DNA from: an uncultured Methanoregulaceae archaeon
GTDB lineage: Archaea; Halobacteriota; Methanomicrobia; Methanomicrobiales; Methanospirillaceae
Direction: 5' to 3'
Assembly: GCA_963705255.1 (NCBI GenBank)
Contig: OY970061.1
Location: 480,001-544,000, forward strand
Length of the DNA: 64,000 nucleotides
The notes under the pieces are model-generated. The model saw only the letters and a list, made by a program, of their open reading frames with translations. It ran no database searches and was not told the origin of the DNA. Made by a program: the position numbers and the translations under genes. This document shows positions 1 to 50,004 of the stretch, in pieces; the first letter of the stretch is position 1; every line of letters starts with the position of its first letter.

Positions 1-1034
1 AGGATGGTCCGTCTGATTGCCGTATCCAGGTCAAGGGTAATTTTTAATCCAAGTTTCTTTTCAGCTAACCCGATATCCGGTACGAATTTTGAACTTCTTA
101 ATAATGTATCGCGGGATAATCCGGTAACAATCTGTGGGGATTTTGGAAATTGCCCGGAAATTTTCTGAGCAAGTTCCTGCAGGGTTACTGCTTCCGGACT
201 CCCCACATTGTAATTCGCCCCGACAGAGCCCCGAACGAGTATGTTCAGCAGCCACCAGGCCATATCGCTGGGATACATATAACTGCGGACCGTCTGTCCG
301 TCCCCGAGGATACGTATCGGCCCGCCAAGCAGACCATCCCGGATAAAATTATTGATCGCCCATGGTCGATCCAGGTACTGGTATGGCCCGATGAAAGCGA
401 AAGGTCGTGCATTGACGAGGGGCAGTCTTTGCTGGTTCCGGTACACTGAACATATCGTCTCTGCCATCCTTTTGGACTCCGGATATGAAGCATTGAAAGC
501 GCTGCAGTCGAGGCTCCCGATAAAGGTCTCGGGAATTCCCGGTATCTCCCAGGGCTGGGCTCCATATACCTGGCCGGAGCTGATGTTCAAAATCTTTTTC
601 ACATCCGGGAGTCTGGCCGCATATTCAAGCACAGCACGTGTCCCGTTCACAATGACATCGATAGTCCTGAGCGGATCAGACGCATGGGTACGGCTGTCAG
701 GATTGGCAGCGGCATGGATGATCCACGATATATTGCTGGGAATGTCCGTGAGATTCCGGATGTCCCGTTCGATCAAATCCACATCCCGGCGTGATGCGAT
801 GTGGGGAACTCTGTCTTTAAAACTATGTGCTCTGCTCGATAACAGGGTAATATGGGTATTAAAATCAAAATTATCATTCAGATACATGATTATTTCCGAT
901 AGCCAAGTCCCCATGAAACCCGTCCCGCCGGTTATCAGAATACGCTCATTTCTCAGGGGCTCCAGAAGGGATGCCTGGCCTGCAGTGACCCGTTTACAAT
1001 CTTCCTGGACAATCTCTTTCGGTGTCAGGCTCAT
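1..1034 (-). CDS. NAD-dependent epimerase/dehydratase/reductase (extended SDR), 3' end runs off the window
   Basis: Translated by hand (not in the ORF track): MSLTPKEIVQEDC...ILITGGTGFMG...HAAA...YPESKR...RPFAFIGP. The ATG overlaps the aldolase stop (ATGA). Confidence 0.9.
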   Translation of the reverse strand, partial: MSLTPKEIVQEDCKRVTAGQASLLEPLRNERILITGGTGFMGTWLSEIIMYLNDNFDFNTHITLLSSRAHSFKDRVPHIASRRDVDLIERDIRNLTDIPSNISWIIHAAANPDSRTHASDPLRTIDVIVNGTRAVLEYAARLPDVKKILNISSGQVYGAQPWEIPGIPETFIGSLDCSAFNASYPESKRMAETICSVYRNQQRLPLVNARPFAFIGPYQYLDRPWAINNFIRDGLLGGPIRILGDGQTVRSYMYPSDMAWWLLNILVRGSVGANYNVGSPEAVTLQELAQKISGQFPKSPQIVTGLSRDTLLRSSKFVPDIGLAEKKLGLKITLDLDTAIRRTI

Positions 1035-2050
1035 GGTTTCTTCCCACCCCTTTTCGCAGAGAGCTCCGAAGCAACTTCAATGATCATGTCCTCCTGGCCT
1101 GCCACTACCTGGCGGCGACCGAGTTCAAAAAAAACATCCCGTGGATCGACATTATATTCCTTTGAAATTCTCTCTACCGGTTTGGAAAATGCAGAAAATA
1201 CCCCGGAAAGCCCACTGATAATACTTAAAGAACGAATTCTTGGGATCTCTTTCATCAGATCCGTTTCAGCAATCTCCGATGCATCGAGGATTTTATAAAG
1301 ATCAATTCCCGTGGAATATCCAAGTTTTTCCAAAACCGCGACCACTGCTTCTATCTGGGCATTCCCGGCACCGGCACCAAACCCCCGTGCAGAACCATCG
1401 ATGATCGTCGCTCCGGCCTGGGCAGCAGCGATTGAATTTGCGATTGCCAGTCCCAGATTATTATGGGCGTGAAAGCCGACAGGTATATTTAGACTGCTTA
1501 CAAGCAGCGAGATGCGTTCGCTGACCTCATCGGGCACATAAGCACCCGCCGAGTCAAATAGTATGACCCCTTCTGCGCCATACGATTCCATCTTTTGTGC
1601 TTCTTCAACCAGCGTCTCTTTTGATGCCATGTGGCTCATCATGAGAACCCCGTAGACCTCTTTTCCCCGGTCCCGTACGAAGTTGATATGACGCTGGGTG
1701 AGATCAGCTTCTGTGCAATGGGCAGCGACTCTGACTACATCCACTCCCAAGTCAAGAGCCCTTTTCAGATCTTTGTTGATAGTTGCAAATCCCGGGATAA
1801 CATGGATGGCAAGTTTGGACCGGGTCAGATTTTTCTTTGCTTCCCGCAGCATCGCTTCATCGTCGATTGCGCTTTCACCAACCTGCAACGAAGATGCACC
1901 AATACCATTTCCGTGACCTACCTCGACGGCAGGTATTCCCGCTGCATTTGCTGCGGATGCATATACGGCGATCTGGTGAGCGGTCATTTTATGGCTTATA
2001 GCGTGATTGCCATCTCTCAATGTTACATCGTGAATTAAAATTTTAGACAT
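1031..2050 (-). CDS. dmpG: 4-hydroxy-2-oxovalerate aldolase (DmpG/MhpE-like)
   Basis: DVTLRDGNH, EVGHGNG, GFHAHNNLG and GAGAGN motifs; C-terminal VAGQED communication domain. Confidence 0.92.
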   Translation of the reverse strand: MSKILIHDVTLRDGNHAISHKMTAHQIAVYASAANAAGIPAVEVGHGNGIGASSLQVGESAIDDEAMLREAKKNLTRSKLAIHVIPGFATINKDLKRALDLGVDVVRVAAHCTEADLTQRHINFVRDRGKEVYGVLMMSHMASKETLVEEAQKMESYGAEGVILFDSAGAYVPDEVSERISLLVSSLNIPVGFHAHNNLGLAIANSIAAAQAGATIIDGSARGFGAGAGNAQIEAVVAVLEKLGYSTGIDLYKILDASEIAETDLMKEIPRIRSLSIISGLSGVFSAFSKPVERISKEYNVDPRDVFFELGRRQVVAGQEDMIIEVASELSAKRGGKKP

Positions 2051-2067
2051 GAAAATTCCTCCGGATA

Positions 2068-2949
2068 TTAACTCCCCGGAACCGTTAACGTTTTTCTGGC
2101 ATATCGTTCGGCCATCGCAATTGCTGCACAGTTGATGATATCCATATTTCCTGCATATTTTGGCAGATAATCTCCTAATCCCTGCACTTTTACCATGATT
2201 ACAATGCGGTTGGACTCAATTAAGGGAGAAACGAGTAACGTATACCCCGGTACATATTCCTGGATCCTGGAAACCATGGTATCGACTTCTGCCTTGAGAC
2301 GTTTCATGTCCGGCTTTTCAACTTTGGCAAAAATCGTGGTCTGCATATCAACACATGGCTGAGCAGGGTTTAATATAAGGATTGCCTTTGTGTCGTTACA
2401 ACCGGAAAATTTTTTTATTCCCTTTTCTGTAGTCTCAACATATTCATCCAGATTCATCCTTGTTGCCGGCCCGGCGCTCCGCGAAGCGATGCTTGAGACC
2501 ACCTCAATATATCTGACATTCTCCTGGGTTTTTCCTATCACGTGGGCAAGGGGGATGGATGCCTGGCCCCCGCAGGTAACCATATTTACATTGTCAAACC
2601 GGAGGCAATTTTCAATATTGATCGCGGGAATACACATCTCCCCAATACCGGATGGCGTCATATCGATGACCGTTTTATTCATCTTTTTCAGAACAGCCCA
2701 GTGTTTCTTATGATCGAGAGCGGAAGTTGCATCGAAGACCAGATCACACGAATCAGGATTTCGTTCTATCGCCTCGATACTGAGATCCGAAGTTTTGACT
2801 CCCATACTGTTGGCCTTATTCATTCCGGGGGAGTTTAAATGGCGCCCGATAAATAATGTACATTCAATAACCTGGGAGCGCATGGTTTTGACCAGTAAAT
2901 CGGTCCCGATATTGCCGCTGCCAAGAATTGCAACTTTCAGTTTTTTCAT
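2068..2949 (-). CDS. dmpF: Acylating acetaldehyde dehydrogenase (DmpF/MhpF-like)
   Basis: GSGNIGTDL, NVNMVTCGGQA (catalytic Cys), SAGPATR and GDYLPKYAGN motifs. Confidence 0.93.
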   Translation of the reverse strand: MKKLKVAILGSGNIGTDLLVKTMRSQVIECTLFIGRHLNSPGMNKANSMGVKTSDLSIEAIERNPDSCDLVFDATSALDHKKHWAVLKKMNKTVIDMTPSGIGEMCIPAINIENCLRFDNVNMVTCGGQASIPLAHVIGKTQENVRYIEVVSSIASRSAGPATRMNLDEYVETTEKGIKKFSGCNDTKAILILNPAQPCVDMQTTIFAKVEKPDMKRLKAEVDTMVSRIQEYVPGYTLLVSPLIESNRIVIMVKVQGLGDYLPKYAGNMDIINCAAIAMAERYARKTLTVPGS

Positions 2950-2995
2950 CTTTCCACCAAAAAGGGTCGTTCCGTTCTCCTCGCGCCGGCGAAAA

Positions 2996-4786
2996 TCAAA
3001 GTATTTTATCTCTCACGGAATTTTCCAGATATTCTTCTCTCGGTAAAAAAGGAAACATATCATCGTAAGGCATTGAGATCATACTTCCGTCTTCAAGGAT
3101 CTTCGAGGTCACTCTCGGGATCAACACCTGATCTGCCGGACTGATAACCTCACACATCATCGGCCCGGATTCGGCGAATATCCGTTTTATCTGCAGGTTC
3201 AGATCCCCGGACTGCGACAGTTTCAGGTATTTCATTCCATATGCCATTGCGATTTTCTCCAGATCCGGGAAGCTGACACCGCTCTTTTTATCTGTACCGA
3301 TATAACGCCCTCCCTGGAAATTGTCCTGGGTCAACCGGATGAGAAGATATCCATTATTATTCAAAACGATTAATTTTATTGGAAGTGAATTATACACAAT
3401 TGTCTGAAGTTCCTGAATATTCATCTGGAGAGATCCATCACCGGTTATGCAGTACACGTTTTTTCCCGGATTTGCAGCGGCCACCCCAATCGCTGCCGGC
3501 ATGTAGCCCATCGTTGAGAGCCCTCCGGTGATAATGTGGCGCTGACCGTATTTTACCTGGAATGCCTGCGCATATGCATGGAAACAGGACCCGGTATCGA
3601 CCAGAAACAGGGCGTCTTCAGGAGCGTTCCGGGAGAGCATCGTGTAGAAATGATAGGAATTTATCCCGCCGGTTTTATTGCCATACTCGGGTAAGTCCAC
3701 GGGGTATTTATTTTTCCAGTTCTGTGTCTGGGAGATCCAGGGTACATTATCGAATTGAAAATCTGACAGTTCCCTGTTCAGTTCAATGAAAAATGCCTTT
3801 GCGTCTGCCTGAATTGCGATGTCAGGAATAATTGAGGGTTTTGAAAGTTCTTTCTCATCGATGTCCACGATTATTTTTTTTGCGTATTGTGCAAAGTTCT
3901 CGTACTGATAACTGACAAGACCAATTGCCAGTCTGCAACCGACACTTAAAAAAAGGTCTGAATTCTGGATGGTGAAATTACTGGCCCGGTCTCCATAGGT
4001 TCCGGGTCTCCCCACAAACAGGGGATGGTTGTGATCTATCAGGTCCATTCCCAGACGGGATGTCATAACAGGAATTTTTACAGTATCTGCGAACTGGTGA
4101 AATTCCTCTATTGCACCTGCGAGCCGGACTCCCGCACCTGCAAGAAGGCATGGCCTGCGACTGTTTCTGATACTGTCAGCAACCAACCGGATCTGTTTCC
4201 GGAGATCTGATTTTCGAGGGTCCTGAGGTGCCGGGGGAATATATCCTTCAAAGTCGTCGGGGTCGAATGAAGCCCCCTGGATATCAATGGGGCATTCAAT
4301 CCAGACCGGCCCGACACGGGGGGATTTTGCAAGATAAATGCATTTTTCGATCTCATATTTTACCCGGGATACATCGTCCAGCATTACGGCATATTTAGTG
4401 ACATTTTGAAAAATCGGCAAGGTATTGAAACCCTGAAGGGCAAATTGGCGGGGCCCCTGAATTTTTGCCTGGGATACTTTCGACTGACCGGAGACGATAA
4501 TGCAGGGGGAACTATCAACATATGCCCCGACAACACCCGTGAGAGTATTGAGTGCCCCGGGGCCGGCAGTCACGTATGCAACCCCGAGTTTTCCCGTTGC
4601 CCTCCCATATGCTTCTGCAGCCATTACCGCTGCCTGTTCATGATGGCAGCATATGAATTTCTGATTTTTGTGCTGCAGCAGTGCATCGGTGAGATGCATT
4701 ATCATTCCCCCGGCAATTAAAAAAACACATTCTCCGCCGGCATCGTATAATTTTGAAGTGATGTAATCAGCGACGCGAATTTTCAT
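2996..4786 (-). CDS. ThDP-dependent enzyme (acetolactate synthase/YerE-like)
   Basis: HHEQAA motif and GDGS...NN ThDP-binding motif; start MKIRVADY. Confidence 0.9.
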   Translation of the reverse strand: MKIRVADYITSKLYDAGGECVFLIAGGMIMHLTDALLQHKNQKFICCHHEQAAVMAAEAYGRATGKLGVAYVTAGPGALNTLTGVVGAYVDSSPCIIVSGQSKVSQAKIQGPRQFALQGFNTLPIFQNVTKYAVMLDDVSRVKYEIEKCIYLAKSPRVGPVWIECPIDIQGASFDPDDFEGYIPPAPQDPRKSDLRKQIRLVADSIRNSRRPCLLAGAGVRLAGAIEEFHQFADTVKIPVMTSRLGMDLIDHNHPLFVGRPGTYGDRASNFTIQNSDLFLSVGCRLAIGLVSYQYENFAQYAKKIIVDIDEKELSKPSIIPDIAIQADAKAFFIELNRELSDFQFDNVPWISQTQNWKNKYPVDLPEYGNKTGGINSYHFYTMLSRNAPEDALFLVDTGSCFHAYAQAFQVKYGQRHIITGGLSTMGYMPAAIGVAAANPGKNVYCITGDGSLQMNIQELQTIVYNSLPIKLIVLNNNGYLLIRLTQDNFQGGRYIGTDKKSGVSFPDLEKIAMAYGMKYLKLSQSGDLNLQIKRIFAESGPMMCEVISPADQVLIPRVTSKILEDGSMISMPYDDMFPFLPREEYLENSVRDKIL

Positions 4787-4972
4787 TGGCCACACCTGAT
4801 ACTTTATACAAAATTGGGTAATCATCAGGTATAAACATATACTCCCTCCTATCCCGCTCACAGATTCGTAAACTTTTGAGGATCACACCACCATTTCCTG
4901 GAATAGAGTAATCATATACGTAGAGATCTCACGGCATTTTTGCGATTTTCCAGAAAATGCGGGTGGTTGGAT

Positions 4973-5911
4973 TCAATCTCCAAACCCGATTTCCTCACGA
5001 ACGATATACAAAGGCCGTTTTTTTGATTCATCATATATCCTGGATATATACTCCCCCATTACACCCAATATCAGGAATAACATGCCGAATAAGAATGAGA
5101 TCACAAAGATGATCGTTGCAATCCCGGGTACTTCACGGCCATAGATCAGATACAACGCTATTTCGATAAAAAGAAGGAGAAAAGATAACGCGGATATGAC
5201 AAATCCCAGGACCGTTGCTATTTTCAGCGGGATATCAGAAAAAGAAAAAATCCCGTTTAATGCCAGTTTAAATATTGTGATAAAATCCGCTTTCGATTCA
5301 CCGGCAAATCTGGGCGGACGTTCAAACGGGATACCCGTCTGTTTAAAACCCGTCCATGCTATTATCCCCCGTAACAAACGGTTTGTTTCTCCGATCCGGT
5401 TTACCGCTCGTAAGACTTTTTTATCGATGAGTCTGAAATCACTCGCATTCTCGGGCATCGTATTATTCGTCAGTCTGCTAAAAATTTTATAGAATAGTTG
5501 CGAAGAGATACGCCTCCCGACAGATATCCCGACCCGCTCCTGTACGATCGCGTATACGATCTCAAAACCCTCTTCCCATTTTTTGATAAGTTCGGGAATT
5601 AATTCCGGAATATCCTGCAGATCTGCGCACATTATCACCGCCGCATCCCCCCGGGCATACTGCAAACCGGCAGTTACACCCCCATCACACCCGAAATTAC
5701 GGGAGAGCTGGATAATTTTGAATCTGGGATCTTCCGCATGGATATGAACTAATTTTTCAAAGGAGGAATCCCAGGACCCGTTTTCTACGATTATGACTTC
5801 AAAATCATAATTGCTGCAATTATTCATGACGTTCTGGAGCCGGCGTTTGAGCTCATCCAGCACTTCTTCTTCATTGTACGCCGGAATAACGATACTGATT
5901 AATTTTTTCAT
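4973..5911 (-). CDS. GT2 polyprenol-phosphate glycosyltransferase (GtrB/ArnC-like)
   Basis: VIPAYNEE, SRNFG, ADLQD and DFRL motifs; two C-terminal TM helices; RPLYIV. Confidence 0.9.
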   Translation of the reverse strand: MKKLISIVIPAYNEEEVLDELKRRLQNVMNNCSNYDFEVIIVENGSWDSSFEKLVHIHAEDPRFKIIQLSRNFGCDGGVTAGLQYARGDAAVIMCADLQDIPELIPELIKKWEEGFEIVYAIVQERVGISVGRRISSQLFYKIFSRLTNNTMPENASDFRLIDKKVLRAVNRIGETNRLLRGIIAWTGFKQTGIPFERPPRFAGESKADFITIFKLALNGIFSFSDIPLKIATVLGFVISALSFLLLFIEIALYLIYGREVPGIATIIFVISFLFGMLFLILGVMGEYISRIYDESKKRPLYIVREEIGFGD

Positions 5912-5915
5912 AGAA

Positions 5916-6902
5916 TTATCGCACCTGCATCCTGAAAAAATCCCGGTACCACTCGATCGTTTCTTTCAGCCCTTCTTCATATGCATATCCGGGTGACCAG
6001 TTCAACATTTTTCTGGCTTTCTGTGCAGAAAGGTACTGATCTTTTATTTCATTCGTCGCCTGGTTCAATACCACCGGTTTCAGGGGACTCTTCATGATCC
6101 TCAGGATATCATTGACAATTTCGATGACCGACTTGGGCGATTCGGTACTGAAGTTAAATGCCTCTCCCAGCAACCGTTTATCATCCATCTTTTCTGCCAG
6201 ATGAAGATAGGATTCTACCCCGTCCCTGATGTAGAAGTAATCCCGCAAAAACGTACCATCACTGCGGATCACCGGATTTTCATTATAAAATACCGAACGG
6301 ATGGTTCCCGGGACAATCCTGTTGTAATTGAGATCCCCGCCACCGTAAAAATTGCCGCATCGCGTCACACAGACCGGAAGGTTATAGGTCTCAAAGTAGC
6401 ACCGGCACAAGAGATCGGCACAACTTTTCGAAACATCGTAGGGATGACGTCCTTCAAGAGGGGTACTCTCGTCATAGGGTAAATTTTTCTGATCCCCGTA
6501 GGCTTTATCACTGGATGCAACGACAATTCTCCGGACTGTCGGAACATTACGGCAAGCTTCAAGAATATTCCAGGTTCCCTCGATATTGGATTTGAATGTG
6601 GAGACGGGCCCGCGGTTTGCCGTAGTCACGATGGTCTGGGCGCCCAGGTGGAAAACCGTCTCGATCTCATATTCATTGAGCGCACGTTCAATAAGGGCAT
6701 AATCCTCGATCTCGCCCCGGACCGTCGTGATCCTGTTTATCGTCCCGGAAAGGTACAGGTGCGACTGAGGCGTCGTATCCCTGATGAGACCTGTGACCTG
6801 TGCCCTCCTCTCAGCAAGTGCCTGGGACATCCAGGAACCAAGCAGGCCGGTACAGCCGGTAACAAAAACCGGCCGGTTTCTCCAGAAATGTTCATTTTTC
6901 AT
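5916..6902 (-). CDS. NDP-sugar 4,6-dehydratase (CDP-glucose 4,6-dehydratase-like)
   Basis: FW...[18 protein letters not shown] and PYDVSK motifs; close to rfbF. Confidence 0.8.
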
Positions 6903-6926
6903 ACCTAGTCCCCTTCGGCAATAAGA

Positions 6927-7352
6927 TCAGCACTTTTTTTCGGTAATCTGTCTGAAACTGAAATATTTTTGTCCAGCATAACTAATTAAGGTAATTAATG
7001 GCAGAATTGCAAGTTGCGCGATCTTGGGATTGAAGGTGAAAATGGAGACGCTGATATATAATGTCACCATGTTGGCAAGCAGGACAAAAAGGTATACAAA
7101 ATTAAATTTTGCAAATTCAAGAATCTTGAACTGTTTTGATTTGAACACCCAGAATTTGTTCCAGAGAAAACTATGGGTTACCCCGATGATATGCGACAGG
7201 ATAAGCGCAAGGAGATAATAGAAATAATCCGAAAGGATGAAAAATGCGCCGTAACCGACAATAGTATTCAGGATCCCGACGCAGGCAAATTTTGGGAACT
7301 GATCGAGCAGGGAATGCTTTCTTAAATACTCCCGGATCTGTTCGGATTTCAC
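6927..7352 (-). CDS. GtrA family membrane protein (polyprenol-P-sugar translocase)
   Basis: KFACVGILNT...SFLWNKFWVF pattern; four TM segments. Confidence 0.88.
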   Translation of the reverse strand: MKSEQIREYLRKHSLLDQFPKFACVGILNTIVGYGAFFILSDYFYYLLALILSHIIGVTHSFLWNKFWVFKSKQFKILEFAKFNFVYLFVLLANMVTLYISVSIFTFNPKIAQLAILPLITLISYAGQKYFSFRQITEKKC

Positions 7353-7394
7353 TACCTGGTACTCCGTTTAGGTATAGTGCGTGGAGAATGGAGA

Positions 7395-8177
7395 TTAATC
7401 ATCCCATACTCTCCATGGGGCATCCGGGGTTTGCCACAGGGAGTTGAGAAGTTCCAGTTCCCGGTAGGTGTCGCAGCACTGCCAGAACCCTTCATGGGGG
7501 AACATCATGAGTTCATTATCTGCCGCCAATTGTTCTATGGGTTCCTTCTCGAGTATACAGGTGTCATGGTCATCCAGGTAGGAAAAGAAATCCTTCCTGA
7601 AAACGAAGAAACCCCCGCTGACAAAACCACCCATCGTTTGTGGCTTCTCACTGAATTGTTTTACACAGTGGGAATCAGTACACAGTTCGCCAAACCGGGA
7701 CACCGGGTGTATTCCGGTGACAGTCCCGATCTTTCCATGGGACCGGTGAAATGCAAAAAGTTTGCTGATATCGATATTCGCCACAGCATCGCCGTACGTC
7801 AGCATGAATGTATCGTCATCGATATATTTTTCAATCTTTTTAACCCGTGCGCCGGTCTGTGATCTTTCACCGGTTTCAGCAAGGGTGACATTCCAGTCGC
7901 GCTCTGTGTGGTCGTTATGGAGCGTAATATTACAGCGGTCCCCCAGGTTTACCGTAAAATCGCTGTTCATGACCTCATAATTCAAAAAATAGTCCTTGAT
8001 CATGGCGCCTTTATACCCCAGGCAGATGATAAAATCTTTAAATCCGTAATAACTGTAAATTTTCATTATATGCCATAATATCGGTCTATTGCCAATCTGG
8101 ACCATCGGTTTTGGCCGGTATTCCGTCTCTTCACGGAGCCGTGTCCCCAGACCCCCCGCCAAGATTACTACTTTCAT
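7395..8177 (-). CDS. rfbF: Glucose-1-phosphate cytidylyltransferase
   Basis: MKVVILAGGLGTRLREETEYRPKPMV, ILWHIMK, TYGD and GFWQCCDT motifs. Confidence 0.93.
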   Translation of the reverse strand: MKVVILAGGLGTRLREETEYRPKPMVQIGNRPILWHIMKIYSYYGFKDFIICLGYKGAMIKDYFLNYEVMNSDFTVNLGDRCNITLHNDHTERDWNVTLAETGERSQTGARVKKIEKYIDDDTFMLTYGDAVANIDISKLFAFHRSHGKIGTVTGIHPVSRFGELCTDSHCVKQFSEKPQTMGGFVSGGFFVFRKDFFSYLDDHDTCILEKEPIEQLAADNELMMFPHEGFWQCCDTYRELELLNSLWQTPDAPWRVWDD

Positions 8178-8986
8178 GAGAAATCCGTGTATAATTAAGA
8201 ATTTGAGATATTTAAATCGAATCTGTTTTAATTGTCGTGATGTTAGTCTGGATAAACCGGCGTGGAGTGTCAAGCTTGAAAAAAGTCGGTCAGATTTTTT
8301 CGATTTTTTTTGAATATGTCCTGACCGCTCCTCAAGACAGGATAACCGGAGGCCTTTACGGGCTTAGTCAGGATACGGTCCCGGGCAGTTCGAAAAATAG
8401 AGTGGGGAGGGACTTACGATCCCCACGCCAAATCCGGCCCCGAACCAGCCCCCGATTCCCCGGTTCCCGATCCCGTCTTCCGGTTCCACAGGAAGCGATG
8501 TCCACGCCCATGAAAAAATAGTGTTTTACTTGCGTTTTTTCCCGGACAAATTGTTTTCCTGCGTTTTTGACCCTGCAAAATAGCGGCCCTGCAGCAGCCC
8601 CGGAAAACGGGAGGTATTTCGGATCGGTTTCCGGGACGATCGGCCACGGAAAGGGCCGTGGAGTCCGTTTTTTGAAAAATGCCGGAAAACACGTTATAAT
8701 CGGGTATTTTTACGAACATGGTGATTACATCTGTTTTCACGGGGGGGCACCGGTGGGAACATCTTCCAAGGAAGTATTCGTGAACGGTGCCCGACCGGAG
8801 GGATGCCTGTCACGATATTTCCCGAGGGCATCGTTGTTCTTTAACATAACAGGACAATTTCAGCCGATTTACTCTTTGTGGAATTGGTGCCGGGTAGTAT
8901 AAGATCGGTCAGATCTCCCCTATAATAAAAAATCACAATACAAAATTTTATCTACTTTTTTGTATTATGATAGTATACAACATGCG

Positions 8987-10243
8987 ATGACAGTCAGGGA
9001 CGCTCTTTTACAGCAGAAACGCGAACTGGATCTCCGCAGTCGGGAGCCGTATATAGAACGAACCGCAGAAATCCGCGAGGGAAACAGTCGGCTCGTCAGA
9101 ATTGTAATTGGTCCGCGCCGGGCAGGCAAATCATTTTTCATAACCCGGCACCTCATGGCTCAGGGCCCGTTCGGCTATGTAAATTTCGACGATGAAGAAC
9201 TCAATAATGCAGACAAAATCCCTGACATCCTTACCGCAGTAGCTGAACTCTATACCGGATCAAAAACGCTCCTGCTCGATGAGATACAGAATATACAGGG
9301 ATGGGAACTCTTGGCGAACCGTCTCGCACGGCAGGGTTACACGCTGTATATAACCGGGAGCAATGCCCATCTGCTCAGTAAAGAACTCGCGACACACCTT
9401 ACCGGGCGGCACACGGTAACAACCATTTTTCCCTTCTCGTTTGCTGAATTCCTCAGGACAAAACGGGGAGAATTTACTGAAAGCGAATACCGTTCACACC
9501 TTGCAGAATATTCTGTCACCGGGGGATTTCCCGAGCTCCTGACAACAATGATCGATAAAAAAGAATACCTCCTCCGGCTTTTCGATGCAGTTGTATACAA
9601 GGATATCATACGGCGCTACCGGGTCCGGTCCCCGCAGGGATTGGGGGATCTCGCCCAGTATCTCTGTTCCAACGTGGCGGGAGAATATTCTGTCCACCGA
9701 CTCTCCCGGGTGACAGGATGCAAAAGTGACCAGACCGTACGGAAATACCTTGATTACCTTGAAGAGGCGTTCCTCTTTTTTTCCGTCCCAAGATTCTCGT
9801 TCAAGGTAAAGGAACAGGTACTCTCAAACAGGAAGATCTATTGCATCGATAACGGGTTTGTCGTTGCCAAAGGATTCCGGTTTTCCCATAATCACGGAAA
9901 CCTCATGGAAAACCTTGTAGCAATTGCACTCCACGAGCTCGAACTTCCCGGCAACCTGAACCTGTACTACTGGAAGAATGCACAGCAACAAGAAGTCGAT
10001 TTTGTTCTCCATAAAAGCGGGAAAGTGGTCGTACTGATCCAAGTCTGTACCGATCTGGAGGATGAAAAGACACGACGCCGTGAAGTCAATGCGCTCCTGA
10101 CTGCAGGCCGGGATCTTGCCTGCAAAAAACGCATCATCCTCACCATGGATGAAGAGAGGACGAAGACTGAAGAATGGTTCGGTATTAAGGGAGATATCCA
10201 GTACATCCCTCTCTGGAAATGGTTGCAGCGGCCGGGAATATAA
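8987..10243 (+). CDS. AAA+ ATPase (AAA_14 + DUF4143 type)
   Basis: Walker A GPRRAGKS, Walker B LLLDEIQ, TGGFPE, KIYCIDNG, EVDF C-terminal nuclease-like motif. Confidence 0.9.
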   Translation: MTVRDALLQQKRELDLRSREPYIERTAEIREGNSRLVRIVIGPRRAGKSFFITRHLMAQGPFGYVNFDDEELNNADKIPDILTAVAELYTGSKTLLLDEIQNIQGWELLANRLARQGYTLYITGSNAHLLSKELATHLTGRHTVTTIFPFSFAEFLRTKRGEFTESEYRSHLAEYSVTGGFPELLTTMIDKKEYLLRLFDAVVYKDIIRRYRVRSPQGLGDLAQYLCSNVAGEYSVHRLSRVTGCKSDQTVRKYLDYLEEAFLFFSVPRFSFKVKEQVLSNRKIYCIDNGFVVAKGFRFSHNHGNLMENLVAIALHELELPGNLNLYYWKNAQQQEVDFVLHKSGKVVVLIQVCTDLEDEKTRRREVNALLTAGRDLACKKRIILTMDEERTKTEEWFGIKGDIQYIPLWKWLQRPGI

Positions 10244-16936: not shown

Positions 16937-19109
16937 ATGTATTATGCTCATTCAACAAAAAATCCGGATAAATCTGACTGGCAGCTCCTCCGCGATCATC
17001 TGACCAATGTTGCAACAATCTCGGGAGAGTTCGCTTATGATTTCAACGCCGGTGAATTGGCATATACGAGCGGACTCCTTCATGATCTCGGGAAATATTC
17101 CCTGGAATTCCAGAGGCGTCTTGAAGATCCCTGCATTCGGGCAGATCACTCGACAGCCGGTGCCCTGGAAGCCGGTAAATCCTACCATCAATCCTATGGC
17201 CGCGTCCTCTCGTACGTTATCGTCGGCCACCACGGCGGGCTCCTGAATTTCGGCAGCGTTGAGAGCGGGCTCGAAGAACGGTTGCGGAGGACCAGCATCC
17301 CGGATTATTCTCAGCTACAGAGACGAGATCGCTTTGCGTGATCAGAATTTATTCCAGCTCGCACTGAAACCGCTCCCCAAAAAATCCGGGTTTTGTCTCT
17401 CTTTTTTCACACGATTACTATACTCATGCCTCGTGGATGCGGACTCGCTCGACACGGAAAGATTCGTGGCTCCGGAAAAATTTTCCGTACGCGGGACATT
17501 CGACTCGTTCGAAAAACTCCGGGAAAAGTTCGATGCAGTCATGCAGGAAAAAAATTCCCGGGCAACCGATTCCCTCATCAACCGGGAGCGAAAAAATATT
17601 TTCGACCAGTGTGTCGCGGCCGGCTCGCAACAGCCTGGATTTTTTTCCCTGACCGTTCCAACGGGCGGGGGCAAGACTCTCTCCTCCATGGCCTTCGCGC
17701 TCGAACACCTGAAGAAAAACAATCTGAAGCGGATCTTTTATATCATCCCCTACACGAGCATTATCGAGCAGAATGCCAAGGTTTTCCGGGATGTCTTCGG
17801 GAACCCGAATGTGCTGGAGCATCATAGTAATTTTGATCCCACGAGCTTGAAAGACGACAATGATCCCGTTTGCGAATCGCTCAAGCTCGCTACCGAGAAC
17901 TGGGACATGCCGATTGTGGTCACGACTAATGTCCAGTTCTTCGAGTCGCTCTTCTCTAACAAACGATCCCGGTGCCGGAAACTGCATAACCTTGCCAGGA
18001 GCGTGATCATTCTTGACGAGGCCCAGATGCTCCCGACCGGGTACTTTCTCCCCTGCCTCGCTGCGTTGTCGGAACTTGTCCGGAATTATGGTGCAACGGT
18101 CGTCATCTGTACCGCTACCCAGCCGAAACTTGGCGCACTGCTGGACGAGAGCCTCAGGCCACGGGAGATCATCGATTCACCGGATAAATTGTATGAATCC
18201 TTCAAGCGGGTACGGGTGACTGATCTGAAATCTCTCAGCGATTCAGACCTTTCATCGAGGTTGAAAGAGCTTCCCCGTGTCCTGTGCATCGTGAATACCC
18301 GGAATCACGCAAAGAAATTGTACGATCTCCTCCAGCCCTCCGGGTCCTGCTATCATCTCAGTGCGCGGATGTGTCCCATCCATCGCAGAAAGATGATTGT
18401 GGAGATCAAAGATCTGCTCAAAGAAGGCAAGGACTGCCGGGTAATTTCAACGCAGTTGATCGAAGCCGGGGTTGATATCGATTTCCCGGTTGTGTATCGG
18501 ATAATGAGCGGAATCGATTCGATCGCTCAGGCTGCCGGGAGGTGCAACCGTGAGGGTAAATTACAAGATCTTGGTGAGGTCTTTGTCTTCAAGTCCGAGG
18601 AGAAATACGCTAGGGCAACCGCATGGCAGAACCGTATCGCCGAAATTGGCGAAATGGCGATGAGTTCGTCGCCAGACTCACTTTCGCTCGAAACAATAGC
18701 AGATTATTTCGGGCGATTATACCACTATGAAGATCTCGATATCGAGAAGATCCTTCCCAGAATCGAAGAGCGAAACCGGGAACTTGCATTTCCTTTTGAA
18801 GATATTGCCACGGATTTTCAGTTTATTGATGAGGGTACTAAAGACGTAATAATTCCATTCGACGCTAATGCAAAATTAAAGATTGAAAAACTTCGCAATT
18901 CCGATTCCCCATGGAAGACAGCCCGGGAACTTCAGGGATATTCAGTCAGTATATATCCCAATGAATTCGGGGAGATGGTGAAGATGAATGCGGTCGAGAT
19001 GATTGCCGACCGGTTTTTCATATTAAAATCCTGTGAGGATTATTCCGATGAAACGGGACTGAAGAACCGGTACAATGTCGGTTATGATGGATCGTTATTG
19101 ATGACTTAG
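16937..19109 (+). CDS. cas3: Cas3 HD nuclease-helicase, +1 frameshift near 17312
   Basis: YAHS, LHDLGK and GHHGGL (HD domain); PTGGGKT, DEAQ, TAT and QAAGRCNREG (helicase). Confidence 0.93.
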
Positions 19110-19115
19110 AAGGAG

Positions 19116-19829
19116 GTGGTGGATATTGGATTTGGAATCAAACTGAAAGTCTGGGGCGATTATGCCTGCTTCACACGCCCCGAGATGAAGGTCGAGCGGG
19201 TGAGCTATGACGTGATGACGCCTTCAGCTGCAAGAGGAATTCTCGAAGCAATCTACTGGAAGCCTGCGATTACATGGGAGATTGACCGGATTCACGTAAT
19301 GAACGAGATCAAGTTCGATAATATCCGGCGGAACGAAGTGCTCGGAAAAATATCGTCAAAGACTGTCAGCAATGCAATGCAGGGAAAAGAGATTTCGTTA
19401 TTCATTAATGCAAATGATAAAAATGTCCGGGATCAGCGAGCTTCGGTTATCCTCCGAGATGTTTTGTATTATATTGAAGCTCATTTCAACATGACCGGAA
19501 AAGCAGGTCCCGACGATACCGTTGAAAAACATTACAATGTAGCCCTCAGAAGAATGCGAAAAGGCCAATGCTTTCATAATCCGTATTTTGGGTGTAGAGA
19601 ATTTCCGGTCGCATTTGAATTGGTTGAGGGAGAAATTCCAAAGTCTCAATTTTATGGAAAAACCGGAGAAACAAAAGACCTTGGGATGATGCTTTGGGAT
19701 ATGGACTTTTCGAAAGTAAAAGAGGATTTTTCGAATATAAATGAAATCAAGGCCGTTTTTTTCCATGCGTCTATGGTAGATGGCGTGATGGACGTGCAGA
19801 AGTGCCTCAAGGAGGGATCATTCTCATGA
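19116..19829 (+). CDS. cas5: Type I-C Cas5 (Cas5d)
   Basis: WGDYACFTRPEMKVERVSY, TPSAARGILEAIYWKP and PYFGCREF motifs. Confidence 0.95.
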   Translation: MVDIGFGIKLKVWGDYACFTRPEMKVERVSYDVMTPSAARGILEAIYWKPAITWEIDRIHVMNEIKFDNIRRNEVLGKISSKTVSNAMQGKEISLFINANDKNVRDQRASVILRDVLYYIEAHFNMTGKAGPDDTVEKHYNVALRRMRKGQCFHNPYFGCREFPVAFELVEGEIPKSQFYGKTGETKDLGMMLWDMDFSKVKEDFSNINEIKAVFFHASMVDGVMDVQKCLKEGSFS

Positions 19830-21815
19830 TCATCCAATCGCTGGTGAGATATTATGATTACCTCATTGGGGAAGGAGTGAAAATTCCCCGTTTAGGCTAC
19901 AGTCCCGCAGGGGTTTCATTTGTATTAGTTATATCGCCAGATGGAAAATTAACGAATCTCATCGATCTTCGCCACGATGAAAAGAAAAAGCGATCAAGAC
20001 AATTTGAGGTTCCATACCAAAAAGATCACACAAACAAGGTGGAGCCACATTTCATTTGCGACAATGCAAAATATGTTTTTGGCGTAGAAAAAGTGAAAGA
20101 GGATACCTTAAAAAAACTCAATGCCAAACCGGAAGATGTAAAATTTCTTGAAAAAATACCTGACGCCGCCATAGTCGTTACCTCCAGATCACAAAAGTGT
20201 TTTGAAGAATTCCGTTCTTTCCATCATTCTTTGCTTGACAGCGCAGACGATTCGAAGATCAAAATATTTTTGCATTTTCTTGATTCATGGAAACCATTGG
20301 AATTCCTCAGCAACCGGAAAATTGCCGAATACAAGGATGATATATTTTCCAGCGGTAATTTTGTGTTCCAGGTTGATGGGATCTGTCTCCACAAATCTCC
20401 TATTGTCATGAAATTCTGGGAGGCGTACTATTTGGCGCATATAGCCTCCGGTAAAACTACTGATGCACAATGTCTCGTGACCGGACAAAAAGGTGCAGTT
20501 TCACGATTGCACAAAAAGATACGAGGAGTTGCCAATTCACAATCCGCCGGAGCACCGTTAGTAAGTTTCAACAATGATGCCTTTTGCTCCTATGGTCAAG
20601 ATCAAAGTTTCAATGCACCTGTCAGCGAAGTTGCAATGTTCAAGTATACGACAGTCCTGAATTATCTCCTTGAATACAATAGTAAAAACAAAATTCAGAT
20701 TGGCGATGTCACTACAGTATTCTGGGCTGAGACATCAGCCCCCTATCAAGACCTTACGAATATACTTCTAAATTCTATTGGGAAGCAGCAAGAAAAAGAG
20801 AAGGTTGAAACATCAGAAATTGTGAAGGTCAGGGATCTGTCCACCCAGCAATTAATTGGTGACATACTTGATAAGCTAAGGAAAGGCCAAAAATTGCAGC
20901 AAATAGATATCGGCACCAATCCGGATAAAAATTTTTACATCCTCGGATTAACTTCAAACAACGGACGACTTGCCGTCCGATACTGGTATCAGGACAGTTA
21001 TGGGAATTTTATAACCAATCTTGCACGACATCATCTCGATTTGGAAATTTCACGCGGAAAATATGGTCCGGATTACATTTCCATTCCGAGATTACTTAGT
21101 GCTACATTACCGAGAAAAAGAAATAAAAAATTGACCCAAAAATCATCGAAAAAAGAAACAAAGATTATCAGTGATTCAAAACCAGCCAAATTTTCTCCGC
21201 TGATTTCTAGCCTATTAATTAATGCAATTTTGAAAAATCGCCCGTATCCGCAACAAATGTTCAGTGCAATGATAAACCGGGCAAAAACCGGGAGTATTGA
21301 AGATTATGTCCAACTTGATTACGTTCACACAGGCTTCATGAAAGCATACCTCATTCGATTAGCACGAGCTGGATTATCCAATTTCAAAGAGGAGGAAATT
21401 ACTATGAGTTTAAACAAAGCAAGTCCGAGCGTCCCATATCATCTGGGAAGATTATTCGCTGTCCTGGAATTAGCACAGCGGTCAGCACATAACCAACCTG
21501 AAAACCCGAATGCGGGAATTAAGAGAACGATTCGGGACAGTTATTTTGCCGGTGCATCGCAAACTCCGACAGTCTGTGTTTCCGATCATTCTGAAGCTTC
21601 ATCAGCATCATTTGTCTAAACTGAAATCCGATAAGCCCGGACTAGGGATTTATTATTCAAAATTGGTTGCAGAAATTCTCGAGTCTGTGGATAAAATCCC
21701 CGCATATCTTAGTCCGGAAGAACAAGGCATGTTCATGCTTGGATATTATCATCAAAGCATTTACCGGAAAGGTGAAGAGAACGACAGAACTGAAAAGGAG
21801 GATGACCATGAGTGA
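19826..21815 (+). CDS. cas8c: Type I-C Cas8c (Csd1), +1 frameshift near 21572
   Basis: QCLVTG, LVSFN..AFCSYG, NNGRLAVR, YHLGRLFAVLE and FMLGYYHQ motifs. Confidence 0.92.
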
Positions 21816-22664
21816 ACCCATAAAAAACCGTTATGAATTTGTATTGTTGTTCGATGTTGAAAATGGAAACCCAAACGGGGATCCGGATATGGGAAACATG
21901 CCGAGGATTGATCCCCAAACAGGCTTTGGTATTGTGACCGATGTTGCCCTGAAGCGGAAAATCCGAGATTATGTCGATCTCGTTAAGTCAGGTCAAAAGG
22001 GCTACGATATTTATGTAAAATCCGGCATCGTCCTTAACGATCAACATAAAAAAGCCTATGATTTCATCAAAAAACCTGTATCGAAGAATCCCAGCACAGA
22101 AGACGAAATGAAATTGATCTCATTCATGTGCCAGAATTTCTTCGACATCCGTGCCTTTGGAGCGGTGATGACCCTTGATGTCAACTGCGGCCAGGTCCGG
22201 GACCGGTCCAGCTCACGTTCGCCCGGAGCCAGAATCGTATCTTCCAGCAGGAAGTCACCATCACCCGGCAGGCCGTGGCAAACGCCAAGGATGCCGAGAA
22301 GGGCCAGACGATGGGGAAGAAACAGATCGTTCCCTACGGCCTGTACCGTGCCGAAGGCTACATCTCTGCACACCTCGCAAAGAAAGTCACCGGATTCTCA
22401 GAAGACGATCTCGCCCTGCTCTGGGAGAGCCTGGTCAACATGTTCGAGCACGACCATTCCGCGGCACGGGGAAAACTCTCCGCACGGAAACTGATCGTCT
22501 TCAAGCACGAGAGCGAACTCGGCTGCTGCCAATCGCACGTCCTGTTCGACAAAGTCAAAGTCGAGCGGCTACCTGGTGAACTGCCACCACGATCATTCAG
22601 TGATTACAAAGTCACCGTCGCCAAAGACGTGCCAAAAGGAGTCGAGGTCATCGAGAAGTTATGA
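21808..22664 (+). CDS. cas7: Type I-C Cas7 (Csd2), -1 frameshift near 22200
   Basis: NGNPNGDPD..N.PR, FFDIRAFGAV, TMGKK and MFEHDHSAARG motifs; one missing G restores QVRGPVQ. Confidence 0.93.
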
Positions 22665-23353
22665 GCGGGAGACGATACACGGACGACGAGCTTCTCCTGC
22701 TGTCGGGGATCCAGCACTTCCGGTTCTGCCGGCGGCAGTGGGCGCTTATTCATGTCGAACAGCAATGGGGCGAGAATCTCCGGACACAGGAAGGGCACTT
22801 CGTGCATGAGCGGGTCGACGATCCGTTCTTCAGTGAGAGCCGGGGGGATGTCGTCATCTCGCGGGCGTTCCCTATCGTCTCGTATTCGCTCGGGCTCACC
22901 GGTATCGCTGACATGATCGAGTACACCCGCTCCGATTCCGGTATTCCACTGTCCGGGCATGAAGGGCTGTGGCGGATGAAGCCGGTCGAGTACAAGCGGG
23001 GCAAGCCGAAGGTCGACGAACGCGACGAGGTCCAGCTCTGCGCACAGGTCATGTGCCTCGAAGAGATGTTCGGCATCGGGATCGATTCCGCGGATTTCTA
23101 TTATAACGAAATCCGTCGGAGGCTGCCGCTGAAGATCACCGACAAGCTTAGGAATCTCGTCGCCTCGCTCGCTGAAGAGATGCACGAAATTTTCCGGAAG
23201 GGGATCACGCCTTCGGCCGAGAAGTCGATCCACTGTTCACAGTGTTCACTCGTCGATGTTTGCGTCCCGAAACTGACGAAGAAACGCGTCTCTGTCCGGA
23301 GTTATATCGGGCGGCATGTAGGGGAAGCCTGCCTTATGGACGGGAAATCCTGA
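22661..23353 (+). CDS. cas4: Cas4
   Basis: FCRRQW, PVEYKRG, QLCAQ..CLEEM and C..CSL...C motifs. Confidence 0.95.
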   Translation: MSGRRYTDDELLLLSGIQHFRFCRRQWALIHVEQQWGENLRTQEGHFVHERVDDPFFSESRGDVVISRAFPIVSYSLGLTGIADMIEYTRSDSGIPLSGHEGLWRMKPVEYKRGKPKVDERDEVQLCAQVMCLEEMFGIGIDSADFYYNEIRRRLPLKITDKLRNLVASLAEEMHEIFRKGITPSAEKSIHCSQCSLVDVCVPKLTKKRVSVRSYIGRHVGEACLMDGKS

Positions 23354-23394
23354 GTCATTGATCCCTTCGGGAGATGGCGGGAGATTGCGATATC

Positions 23395-24426
23395 ATGAGA
23401 AAACTGCTGAACACCCTGTACGTCACAACCCCCGAGTCTTTCCTGCACCGGGACGGGGAGAACGTCATCATCAAAGTCGGCACCGAGGAGAGGTTCCGCA
23501 TTCCCATCCACAATCTCGAAGGGATCGTCTGTTTTGGATACATGGGCGCAAGCCCTGCCCTGATGCGCCTCTGCTCCGACAACAATGTCGGGCTCTCGTT
23601 CCTCACACCACACGGGAAATTTCTCGGCCGGGTCTGCGGGAGGGTCAGGGGCAACGTCCTGCTCCGGAGAACCCAGTACCGAATCGCCGATGATGCCCGG
23701 GTCTCTCTCGCGATATCGAAGAATTTCATCGCAGCAAAGATCGTCAACTGCCGGACAATCCTCGGGAGAGGCCTCCGGGATCACGGTGATGTGGTCCACT
23801 GTGATCGAATCCGGTCTGCCGATGCCCTGCTGATCGAAAATCTCCGAAAGATCGAGGACTGCCCGGATGCGGACTCGCTCCGGGGTATAGAAGGGAACTG
23901 CGCGAAGTTCTACTTCGACATATTCGATGAGCTGATCCTGAAACAGAAGAACAATTTCTTCCTCACCGACAGGAATCGCCGGCCACCCCGCGACAACATG
24001 AACGCATTGCTCTCGTTCTTCTACACGCTCCTCGCCCATGACGTCGAGTCAGCGCTCGAGACCGTGGGGCTCGATCCATACGTCGGATTCTTCCACACGG
24101 ACCGGCCGGGAAGGGCGGGCCTCGCGCTTGACATGATGGAAGAGCTCCGGCCGTTCATTGCCGACCGGCTTGCGCTCAATCTCGTGAACCTGCAACAGAT
24201 CTGCGGGGACGATTTTCTCAAAAAAGAAGGTGGTGGAATCATCCTGACTGAGAAGGGGCGGAAAGACGTGCTTGCCGCATGGCAGAAGAGGAAGCAGGAG
24301 GAGATCGTGCATCCATATCTCAACGAAAAGATCCAGATCGGGCTTATCCCGTACGCTCAGGCGATGCTGATGGCCCGGTTCCTGCGCGGGGATATTGACG
24401 GGTATCCGCCGTTCTTCATGAATTAG
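23395..24426 (+). CDS. cas1: Type I-C Cas1
   Basis: MRKLLNTLYVT, LRGIEG, RNRRPP.D..NALLSF and LALDMMEELR motifs. Confidence 0.96.
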   Translation: MRKLLNTLYVTTPESFLHRDGENVIIKVGTEERFRIPIHNLEGIVCFGYMGASPALMRLCSDNNVGLSFLTPHGKFLGRVCGRVRGNVLLRRTQYRIADDARVSLAISKNFIAAKIVNCRTILGRGLRDHGDVVHCDRIRSADALLIENLRKIEDCPDADSLRGIEGNCAKFYFDIFDELILKQKNNFFLTDRNRRPPRDNMNALLSFFYTLLAHDVESALETVGLDPYVGFFHTDRPGRAGLALDMMEELRPFIADRLALNLVNLQQICGDDFLKKEGGGIILTEKGRKDVLAAWQKRKQEEIVHPYLNEKIQIGLIPYAQAMLMARFLRGDIDGYPPFFMN

Positions 24427-24438
24427 GTGATTGCTGTG

Positions 24439-24725
24439 ATGGTCCTGGTTACGTATGATGTGAACACAGAAACGCCGGAGGGCGGAGACGGCTCCGGCAG
24501 GTTGCAAAGGAATGCGAAAATTTCGGTCAGCGTGTACAGAATTCCGTCTTCGAATGTCTCGTCGACCCGGTCCAGTTCGCAAAACTCCAGCACGCGCTGA
24601 AAGGGATCATGGATAAAGAGAAAGACAGCATCCGGTTCTATTATCTCGGCGACAACTGGCAGAATCGTGTCGAACACTGTGGAAGCGGGAAGGGATACGA
24701 TCCGGAAGGTTTATTGATCACGTGA
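24439..24725 (+). CDS. cas2: Cas2, -1 frameshift near 24481
   Basis: MVLVTYDV, then RRRLRQVAKECENFGQRVQNSVFEC...DSIRFYYLG after restoring one G. Confidence 0.9.
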
Positions 24726-24943
24726 TCGCGAACCGAAAGCTCCCATCGCCTTCCCAAGAGGTTCGCGGGGAAAGTGAAGAACATGTATTTCAATATTCTT
24801 CGGTCTTTCCCAATCTCGAAGAGATTTTATTGCAGAACCTTCGGGGATTTGATCTTTCCCGTTCCGCTCAGATTTTCCTGCGATTGAGGTTTGATGAATG
24901 GGTAGCCTTTAATTTTTGGTGAGCGATGATCTAAACATTTGCA
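24726..24943 (+). promoter_or_regulatory. CRISPR leader
   Basis: AT-rich stretch between cas2 and repeat 1, with inverted repeat CGCGAACC (24727) / GGTTCGCG (24760). Confidence 0.75.
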
Positions 24944-49741: not shown

Positions 49742-49781
49742 CGCGACGTCTAGACCATCAAACTTCAAATCAGAAAAAGAA

Positions 49782-49853
49782 TGCGCCGACCGGGACTCGA
49801 ACCCGGGTTTAGGCGTTGGCAACGCCTAGTGATAACCACTACACTATCGGCGC
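49782..49853 (-). tRNA. tRNA-Gly(GCC)
   Basis: 72-nt cloverleaf GCGCCGA...TCGGCGCA, anticodon arm AGGCG-TTGCCAA-CGCCT. Confidence 0.97.
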
Positions 49854-50004
49854 AGTGTGCTCTACAATGTGGGAATTCAAACAATTTAAGTATATCGAAG
49901 GGAAGGACGGCGCTGGATGGGTTCCCGTTCCCTTCCTGCAGACCCGGTGCCACAAGCATTATCTTTTCCACCCCTCTATTAAATGATAACCGAGCCGGTT
50001 TTTT

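Follow-up and report, generated by a model that had tools for sequence, protein, structure and literature searches.

The stretch of DNA analysed here (the window, 64,000 nt; G000:C1:480001-544000) belongs to the genome of an uncultured Methanoregulaceae archaeon, which is assembled as a single contig of 2.6 Mb and is 89.5% complete. Positions 1–8177 of the window are occupied by eight genes, all co-oriented on the minus strand, which probably encode the synthesis of a branched sugar of the erwiniose type. The first gene of this operon codes for RfbF/DdhA, the glucose-1-phosphate cytidylyltransferase that makes CDP-glucose (7395–8177, 260 aa from an ATG at 8177; TIGR02623, 344.5 bits against a cut-off of 300.25). 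It is followed after 42 nt by the gene for a small membrane protein of the GtrA family, a putative flippase of, or partner for, a polyprenyl-phosphate-linked sugar (6927–7352; PF04138, 79.4 bits, hydrophobic segments present), then by that for an extended short-chain dehydrogenase/reductase (SDR) resembling CDP-glucose 4,6-dehydratase (DdhB/RfbG-like; 5916–6902) and, two genes after GtrA, by that for a GT2 glycosyltransferase of the polyprenyl-phosphate-sugar synthase type (PgfS/ArnC/GtrB-like; 4973–5911). The second half of the operon consists of a YerE-like carboligase of 596 aa dependent on thiamine diphosphate (ThDP), the candidate equivalent of ErwE (2996–4786, with the reading frame open back to 4861), an acylating acetaldehyde dehydrogenase of the DmpF/ErwJ type (2068–2949), a class II pyruvate aldolase of the DmpG/ErwI type (1031–2050), and a second extended SDR of 355 aa, a candidate branch ketoreductase of the ErwF type (1–1034), whose gene ends 33 nt beyond the left edge of the window. 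The DmpF and DmpG genes lie directly 3' of the ThDP gene with a gap of 17 nt between them, and the intergenic gaps of the operon range from -4 to 64 nt, with the exception of the 186 nt separating the GT2 and ThDP genes. The co-oriented genes listed in a preliminary description of this DNA (RfbF, the dehydratase-like SDR, the ThDP enzyme, DmpF/DmpG and the terminal SDR) were all found on this strand, while GtrA and GT2 are two further members of the operon.

Deoxysugar genes and branch reductase candidates

The set of enzymes expected for a 3,6-dideoxysugar is completed outside the window. In the 18 kb fetched to its left (locus L002; L-numbers are the labels of fetched loci), the same strand carries genes for an SDR of 312 aa (L002:16964-17902) and, two genes from the window edge, for RfbH/DdhC, the E1 dehydrase (L002:15613-16956). 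The preliminary description, which saw no C3-deoxygenase, had suggested that it might lie beyond the window, and this is where it was found, as a full-length equivalog match to NF011936 (732.8 bits against a cut-off of 423). The protein carries Cys193, Cys251, Cys253, Cys261 and His220, which we take to be the iron–sulfur and pyridoxamine phosphate hallmarks of an E1 dehydrase, and the CxCx7C motif is kept in all 42 RfbH homologues of more than 45% identity in the fetched loci. The dehydratase-like SDR has the CDP-glucose 4,6-dehydratase 1wvg as its closest solved relative (142 bits), the alignment with which shows conserved SDK and YxxxK motifs (SSDKAY and YDVSK), and orthologues with 56–71% identity were found in seven other loci (L018, L007, L005, L031, L030, L032 and L048).

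The 355-aa SDR matches PF01370 with 120 bits, contains the YxxxK motif (YPESK), and is closest among solved structures to a UDP-glucuronate decarboxylase (103 bits). It travels with the DmpF and DmpG genes (together DmpFG): of the 17 loci with a highly similar ThDP enzyme that are described below, 15 have it with at least 46% identity, and in the three other loci with DmpFG its identity is 42–50%. It is the best candidate for a branch ketoreductase of the ErwF type.

The ThDP enzyme, the aldolase and their conserved linkage

All three TPP_enzyme domains were found in the ThDP enzyme, in which HEQ49, GDG449 and NN477 are intact. Its closest solved relatives are JanthE (8rph/8rpi/8rpj, 408 bits) and PpYerE (5ahk, 240 bits), both matching over the full length and sharing the same ThDP-binding architecture, followed by plant acetohydroxyacid synthase (AHAS, 234 bits). 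The 8rph chain has CDG at the position of the canonical GDG of the window enzyme; in the available part of the source (PMC12247030), CDG is given as the motif of the YerE-like JanthE, PpYerE is the other solved member, and no DmpFG partner is described for either. The window enzyme obtains 372 bits with the AHAS model TIGR00118, under the cut-off of 538, and the genome has a separate housekeeping IlvB (G000:C1:638774-640426) that reaches 845 bits. The two proteins are 30% identical. A tree of 77 ThDP sequences (quick IQ-TREE run, LG+G4; L013, L051, L064 and L077 were removed by a length filter) has IlvB as a distant outgroup. The preliminary description had stated beforehand that grouping with IlvB would speak against its proposal, and the tree separates the two. 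Since the genome has its own IlvB elsewhere, the TIGR00118 score is below the cut-off and the YerE-like 8rph is the closest structure, the enzyme is, judged by its sequence, not a housekeeping AHAS, and assignment as IlvB was rejected.

In the same tree, the window enzyme and those from 16 other loci form a clade of 17 rows (SH-aLRT 100), and DmpF and DmpG adjoin the ThDP gene in all 17; the Methanomicrobiales rows are nested among bacterial ones. This clade is distinguished by 34 alignment columns, such as Gly119, which is Glu in 56 of the 56 other YerE-like rows and in IlvB. The use of these columns as a marker of donor specificity was dropped, as they are absent from the enzymes of L047, L052 and L065. 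Neither protein search had a Pectobacterium or Yersinia protein among the 120 best matches listed. In the Acetobacterium metagenome-assembled genome (MAG) of L005, two short open reading frames (ORFs) with the middle and C-terminal ThDP domains only lie downstream of an intact cassette (L005:9181-10267); they probably derive from a second ThDP gene that has decayed.

Over 200 enzymes resembling YerE were reportedly found in silico by Krug et al. in 2024. Our scan of one genome per species yielded 79 loci, 17 of which have a ThDP enzyme at least 50% identical to that of the window, with DmpF and DmpG adjoining its gene in every case (17/17). The 355-aa SDR accompanies them in 15 loci, RfbF in 16 and RfbH in 15, the exceptions being L004 (which reaches a contig end), L011 and L031. 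Within the other 62 loci, DmpFG were found only in L047, L052 and L065, although several are contigs of 3–4 kb for which absence is uninformative. Altogether, the ThDP/DmpF/DmpG set stands beside RfbF/RfbH genes in 20 of the 79 loci, from 12 phyla of which three are archaeal (Methanomicrobiales in L003, L004 and L006, Methanomassiliicoccales in L013 and Micrarchaeota in L031). Such recurrence indicates that the grouping of these genes is not due to chance. One of the loci, from a Methanoregula sp. MAG, has a ThDP enzyme 97% identical to that of the window.

DmpF and DmpG both exceed the cut-offs of their family models (TIGR03215, 383 bits against 282, and TIGR03217, 396 bits against 286, respectively). 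DmpF keeps the TCGGQA motif and has 7z3s as its closest solved relative (281 bits), and DmpG keeps Arg12, Asp13, His16, His194 and His196; it is the only gene of the genome that scores above the cut-off of the DmpG family. In its fold, the pair agrees with the catabolic complexes DmpG/DmpF, BphI/BphJ and HsaF/HsaG, with which it also shares the residues for metal binding and catalysis, a communication domain and the catalytic Cys motif (255–262 bits for the aldolase, 214–232 bits for the dehydrogenase). Unlike these complexes, it would run in the synthetic direction, no meta-cleavage genes accompany it, and the aldolase differs at two positions known to govern stereochemistry. In both synthesis and cleavage, BphI is restricted to the 4S acid, with Tyr290 blocking the 4R substrate; stereocontrol is lost in the Y290F variant, while the double variants L87N/Y290F and L87W/Y290F are specific for 4R (PMC3962088). 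When Leu87 and Tyr290 of BphI were mapped through alignments to 8ih7, 4jn6 and 1nvm, anchored on the conserved Arg and His residues (R16/H20), they corresponded to His83 and Phe285 in the window aldolase, whereas the catabolic structures 8ih7 and 4jn6 have Leu and Tyr there. Because of His83 and Phe285, the aldolase is predicted to be a natural former of the 4R product rather than the 4S one. A catabolic meta-cleavage DmpG/BphI was rejected as its identity on the grounds of these two residues and the lack of catabolic neighbours.

The same pattern is seen in the other sugar loci. When the window aldolase is taken together with 20 others from such loci, 19 have Phe at position 285 and two have Val, but none Tyr; at position 83 there are 17 with His, two with Leu and two with Phe. 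A search of 1.84 billion representatives gave 487 relatives at E ≤ 1e-30, and in a tree of 71 aldolase sequences all those from sugar loci fall within one clade of 43 rows (SH-aLRT 100). Within it, 40 rows have Phe or Val at position 285 and the other three have Cys, Thr or His; Tyr does not occur, all the rows with it lying outside the clade (13/13). This 4R-type signature is a modest, testable addition of the present analysis. Separately, 71 of the 150 best DmpG-family representatives belong to one fused aldolase-like subfamily (P0278, P0287-P0289, P0293 and others), mostly of 600–840 aa with a few of about 340–500 aa, in which the catalytic-site His16 is replaced by Tyr and positions 83 and 285 are occupied by Phe and His, respectively.

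A probable erwiniose-type pathway and its alternatives

The scheme to which this gene set compares best is that for erwiniose in Pectobacterium atrosepticum SCRI1043, published by Steitz et al. in 2022 (PMC9306805). There, ErwJ converts acetyl-CoA to acetaldehyde, which the BphI-like aldolase ErwI joins to pyruvate, giving 4-hydroxy-2-oxopentanoate; the ThDP enzyme ErwE (WP_011093010) then moves the decarboxylated C4 unit onto CDP-4-keto-3,6-dideoxyglucose, and ErwF reduces the branch (PMC9306805). In vitro, ErwE accepts 4-hydroxy-2-oxo acids, with preference for the (R)-enantiomer, but not pyruvate, and the authors therefore excluded an aldol extension after branching (PMC9306805). Compared at the level of enzyme families, both clusters have a YerE-like ThDP enzyme, an acetaldehyde dehydrogenase, an aldolase of the BphI/DmpG type and genes of the RfbF/G/H type, and the NAD(P)H-dependent reductase of the published cluster has candidate counterparts among the SDRs found here. 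They differ in their host, which is here a methanogenic archaeon, in gene order (ThDP-DmpF-DmpG-SDR in the window, ErwE-ErwF-ErwJ-ErwI in the published cluster according to its accessions, WP_011093010 to WP_011093013), and in that the window operon has GT2 and GtrA genes inside it and a second SDR, and has no E3 reductase that we could find. Clusters of the caryophyllose/gastriose type (MMAR_2331/2332, MygI/MyGE) follow a related design, in which an aldolase, there of the HpcH type, makes the keto acid that a ThDP enzyme grafts onto the sugar, but the branch predicted from the combination of DmpF with a DmpG-type aldolase is C4 rather than C6 or C7.

Applied to the window, this scheme would proceed as follows. 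Going by family membership, RfbF would make CDP-glucose, the RfbG-like SDR would form the 4-keto-6-deoxy sugar, and RfbH would take off the 3-OH group. By analogy with ErwJ and ErwI, DmpF would reduce acetyl-CoA to acetaldehyde, and DmpG would condense this with pyruvate to 4-hydroxy-2-oxopentanoate, with 4R as the predicted configuration; the latter fits the donor preference of ErwE. The ThDP enzyme, like ErwE, would decarboxylate the keto acid and attach a 3-hydroxybutanoyl group to C4 of the CDP-4-keto sugar, and an SDR would act as ErwF does, reducing the branch carbonyl to give a 1,3-dihydroxybutyl group. The steps proposed in the preliminary description (DmpF/DmpG running in the biosynthetic direction, a C4 donor, transfer by the ThDP enzyme and reduction by the SDR) each have their counterpart in the erwiniose scheme. 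The chemistry that it implied to be new has, however, been in print since 2022 (PMC9306805); what is new is the host, a methanogen, and not the pathway.

We estimate at roughly three in four the probability that the operon encodes an erwiniose-type pathway for a C4-acyl-branched CDP-3,6-dideoxyhexose within a surface-glycan island of low GC content in Methanoregula. This is based on the gene content matching the erw cluster, the conserved linkage with DmpFG, the distance of the ThDP enzyme from AHAS and the residues of the aldolase, as well as on the tightness of the operon, the absence of a second gene above the DmpG-family cut-off in the genome and the lack of catabolic genes in the flanks.

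Several points weigh against it. The function of every enzyme of the locus is read from sequence, and the RfbG-like SDR scores 217.5 bits on TIGR02622, under the cut-off of 278.45. No gene for an E3/DdhD reductase was detected in the locus; the genome (89.5% complete) has a single NAD_binding_1 match, about 450 kb away. For the DmpFG-linked ThDP enzymes as a whole no common donor signature was found, given the lack of the 34 clade columns in three of them, and the donor specificity of the window enzyme is read from the neighbouring genes rather than from its own sequence. The locus also holds two extended SDRs, of 355 and 312 aa, either of which may be the branch reductase. Polyprenyl-phosphate-type GT2 enzymes are, to our knowledge, known with UDP- or GDP-sugars. 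Finally, the literature searched holds no report of a branched sugar in a Methanoregula glycan.

One alternative is a pathway like that of yersiniose A, for which YerE and YerF of Yersinia pseudotuberculosis likewise form a branch at C4 of a CDP-4-keto-3,6-dideoxyhexose with a ThDP enzyme and then reduce it with an SDR. YerE uses pyruvate and makes a C2 branch without DmpFG, so that here the ThDP enzyme would move a two-carbon unit, while DmpF and DmpG would extend the acetyl branch later or serve elsewhere. The window enzyme does fall within the YerE-like group, sequence comparison did not tie its pocket to a long donor, and 20 of the 59 loci lacking DmpFG have an SDR of the same type as the 312-aa one beside RfbH. 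However, the window enzyme sits in a separate clade linked to DmpFG without exception, the published ErwE rejects pyruvate with extension after branching excluded by its authors, and the aldolase residues indicate the very enantiomer that ErwE prefers, all of which makes a yersiniose-type route improbable.

The donor chemistry could also be the same but the acceptor another, the branch then being attached to a CDP-sugar that keeps its 3-hydroxy group (6-deoxy-4-keto) or is modified in another way. Without an E3 reductase, 3-deoxygenation may fail or take a different course, and the genome offers only the distant NAD_binding_1 match; the dehydratase-like SDR is also divergent. Among the 18 DmpFG loci in which 70 unmatched ORFs were scanned, E3-like genes were seen only in L052, L008 and L009. 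Against this, the equivalog match of RfbH and its kept pattern of Cys and His residues, with CxCx7C invariant among its homologues, argue for a working iron–sulfur dehydrase served by another reductant, and we see only a slim chance for a different acceptor. An ordinary metabolic role of the ThDP enzyme and DmpFG (in the synthesis of branched-chain amino acids, in acetoin metabolism or in aromatic catabolism), with their location in a glycan island being incidental, is highly improbable, even though public records name the relatives "acetolactate synthase large subunit" and DmpF and DmpG exceed the cut-offs of catabolic equivalog models, considering the separate IlvB, the absence of catabolic context, the RfbF/RfbH linkage kept over 12 phyla and an aldolase without the catabolic Tyr.

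The glycan island and a possible exchange of the branch module

The operon forms the right end of a stretch of about 60 kb with low GC content (32–49%), from about 428 kb to 488.3 kb of the contig; the operon itself has 46.7%, compared with 54.6% for the genome. This stretch is rich in glycan genes. Beyond RfbH, on the same strand, are the Wzm and Wzt genes of an ABC transporter (L002:13038-15241), with a 485-aa protein adjoining Wzt for which a single hydrophobic segment but no Pfam match was found. Further left are methyltransferases (one of them of the sugar C-methyltransferase type), a WbuX/HisH/HisF-like amidotransferase set, a CMP-sugar synthetase and NeuB. On the right side, the neighbours are housekeeping and CRISPR-Cas genes, including the archaeal markers TFE-alpha and aTrm56 a few kb from the operon. 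As the preliminary description had noted, aromatic-catabolism genes are found among the neighbours of neither flank. The right border of the island is marked by a gene for an ATPase with AAA_14 and DUF4143 domains (window 8960–10243, plus strand), divergent from RfbF. A type I-C CRISPR-Cas system lies at 17259–26700 (Cas3, Cas5d, Csd1/Cas8c, Cas7, Cas4 and Cas1, then an array at about 24943–26691 in which a repeat of 32 nt recurs with a period of about 66), and a sharp GC trough is seen at 48001–50000 (32.5%, against about 60% on either side).

The aldolase is present in four of 151 sampled genomes of the order (that of the window included) and in two of 12 other genomes of the genus. Taken together with the low GC content and the nesting of the Methanomicrobiales ThDP enzymes among bacterial ones, this patchy distribution fits horizontal acquisition and variation at the level of strains. 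A sister Methanoregula sp. MAG shares the scaffold of the window's operon (L032:5214-15784), with RfbF 87%, RfbH 86%, the dehydratase-like SDR 71% and the 312-aa SDR 55% identical, as well as GtrA and GT2. Between GT2 and the SDR, it has a ThDP enzyme of another lineage (44% identity), a HAD hydrolase and an aldolase of the HpcH/HpaI type, the latter module resembling the caryophyllose-type design of PMC9306805, and fragments of a DDE transposase lie between its GT2 and ThDP genes. This suggests that the branch module has been swapped between Methanoregula strains, which is a second modest and testable addition of this analysis. In L047 and L052, the aldolases nest in the main sugar clade while the ThDP enzymes are of another YerE-like lineage. 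The Desulfobacterales MAG of L065 has an extra HpcH/HpaI-type aldolase, whose gene is flanked by those of the DmpFG-linked SDR and the ThDP enzyme (L065:9251-9994), and two aldolases in one module hint at a longer or doubly extended side chain.

As for the fate of the sugar, both the product and its glycan acceptor are deduced from the gene content. The GT2 enzyme has the architecture of the GtrB/ArnC/PgfS type, with an N-terminal GT2 domain (PF00535, 92.9 bits, residues 6–168), C-terminal hydrophobic segments (221–290) and a GtrA partner gene, while the nearest NCBIfam models are matched below their cut-offs (PgfS, 251.5 bits against 500; ArnC, 158.4 against 529). Nine of the 79 loci, some carrying DmpFG and some not, have a GT2 homologue of at least 50% identity. 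The membrane GT2, together with GtrA, might transfer the sugar to dolichyl phosphate for extracellular use, which would have GT2 acting on a CDP-sugar; alternatively, the sugar might be built into a polymer exported by the adjoining Wzm/Wzt. In L006, two multi-segment membrane proteins are encoded 3' of RfbH, and the one with 10 segments, used as a query for a GT-C partner, had no match in the genome of the window. It is conceivable, though rather doubtful as a whole, that GT2 loads the acyl-branched CDP-sugar onto dolichyl phosphate, that GtrA flips it, that S-layer or archaellin glycans are decorated with it outside the cell rather than in the cytoplasm, and that the branch modules (DmpFG or HpcH) are swapped between strains, with the transposase at their junction. 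If true, this would amount to serotype-like variation, and would be the first demonstration of a C-branched sugar in a glycoconjugate of an archaeon, as well as of a polyprenyl-phosphate glycosyltransferase dependent on a CDP-sugar.

In the literature searched, which did not cover the survey of Krug et al. from 2024, no case of erwiniose, yersiniose, a dideoxyhexose or a branched sugar was found in archaea, in line with the remark of the preliminary description that such sugars are known from bacteria only. The public labels of these genes as acetolactate synthase and enzymes of aromatic catabolism are misleading, and the scheme of Steitz et al. would extend to loci of Methanomicrobiales, Methanomassiliicoccales and Micrarchaeota. 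The aldolases of the sugar clusters may be regarded as natural counterparts of the engineered BphI L87N/Y290F, and a class II pyruvate aldolase with predicted 4R selectivity could be a lead for biocatalysis. If read correctly, the operon predicts a rare branched C10 sugar on the surfaces of methanogens from peat and sediment, and the cassette swap in Methanoregula suggests that the surface glycans of archaea vary in the way of bacterial O-antigens.

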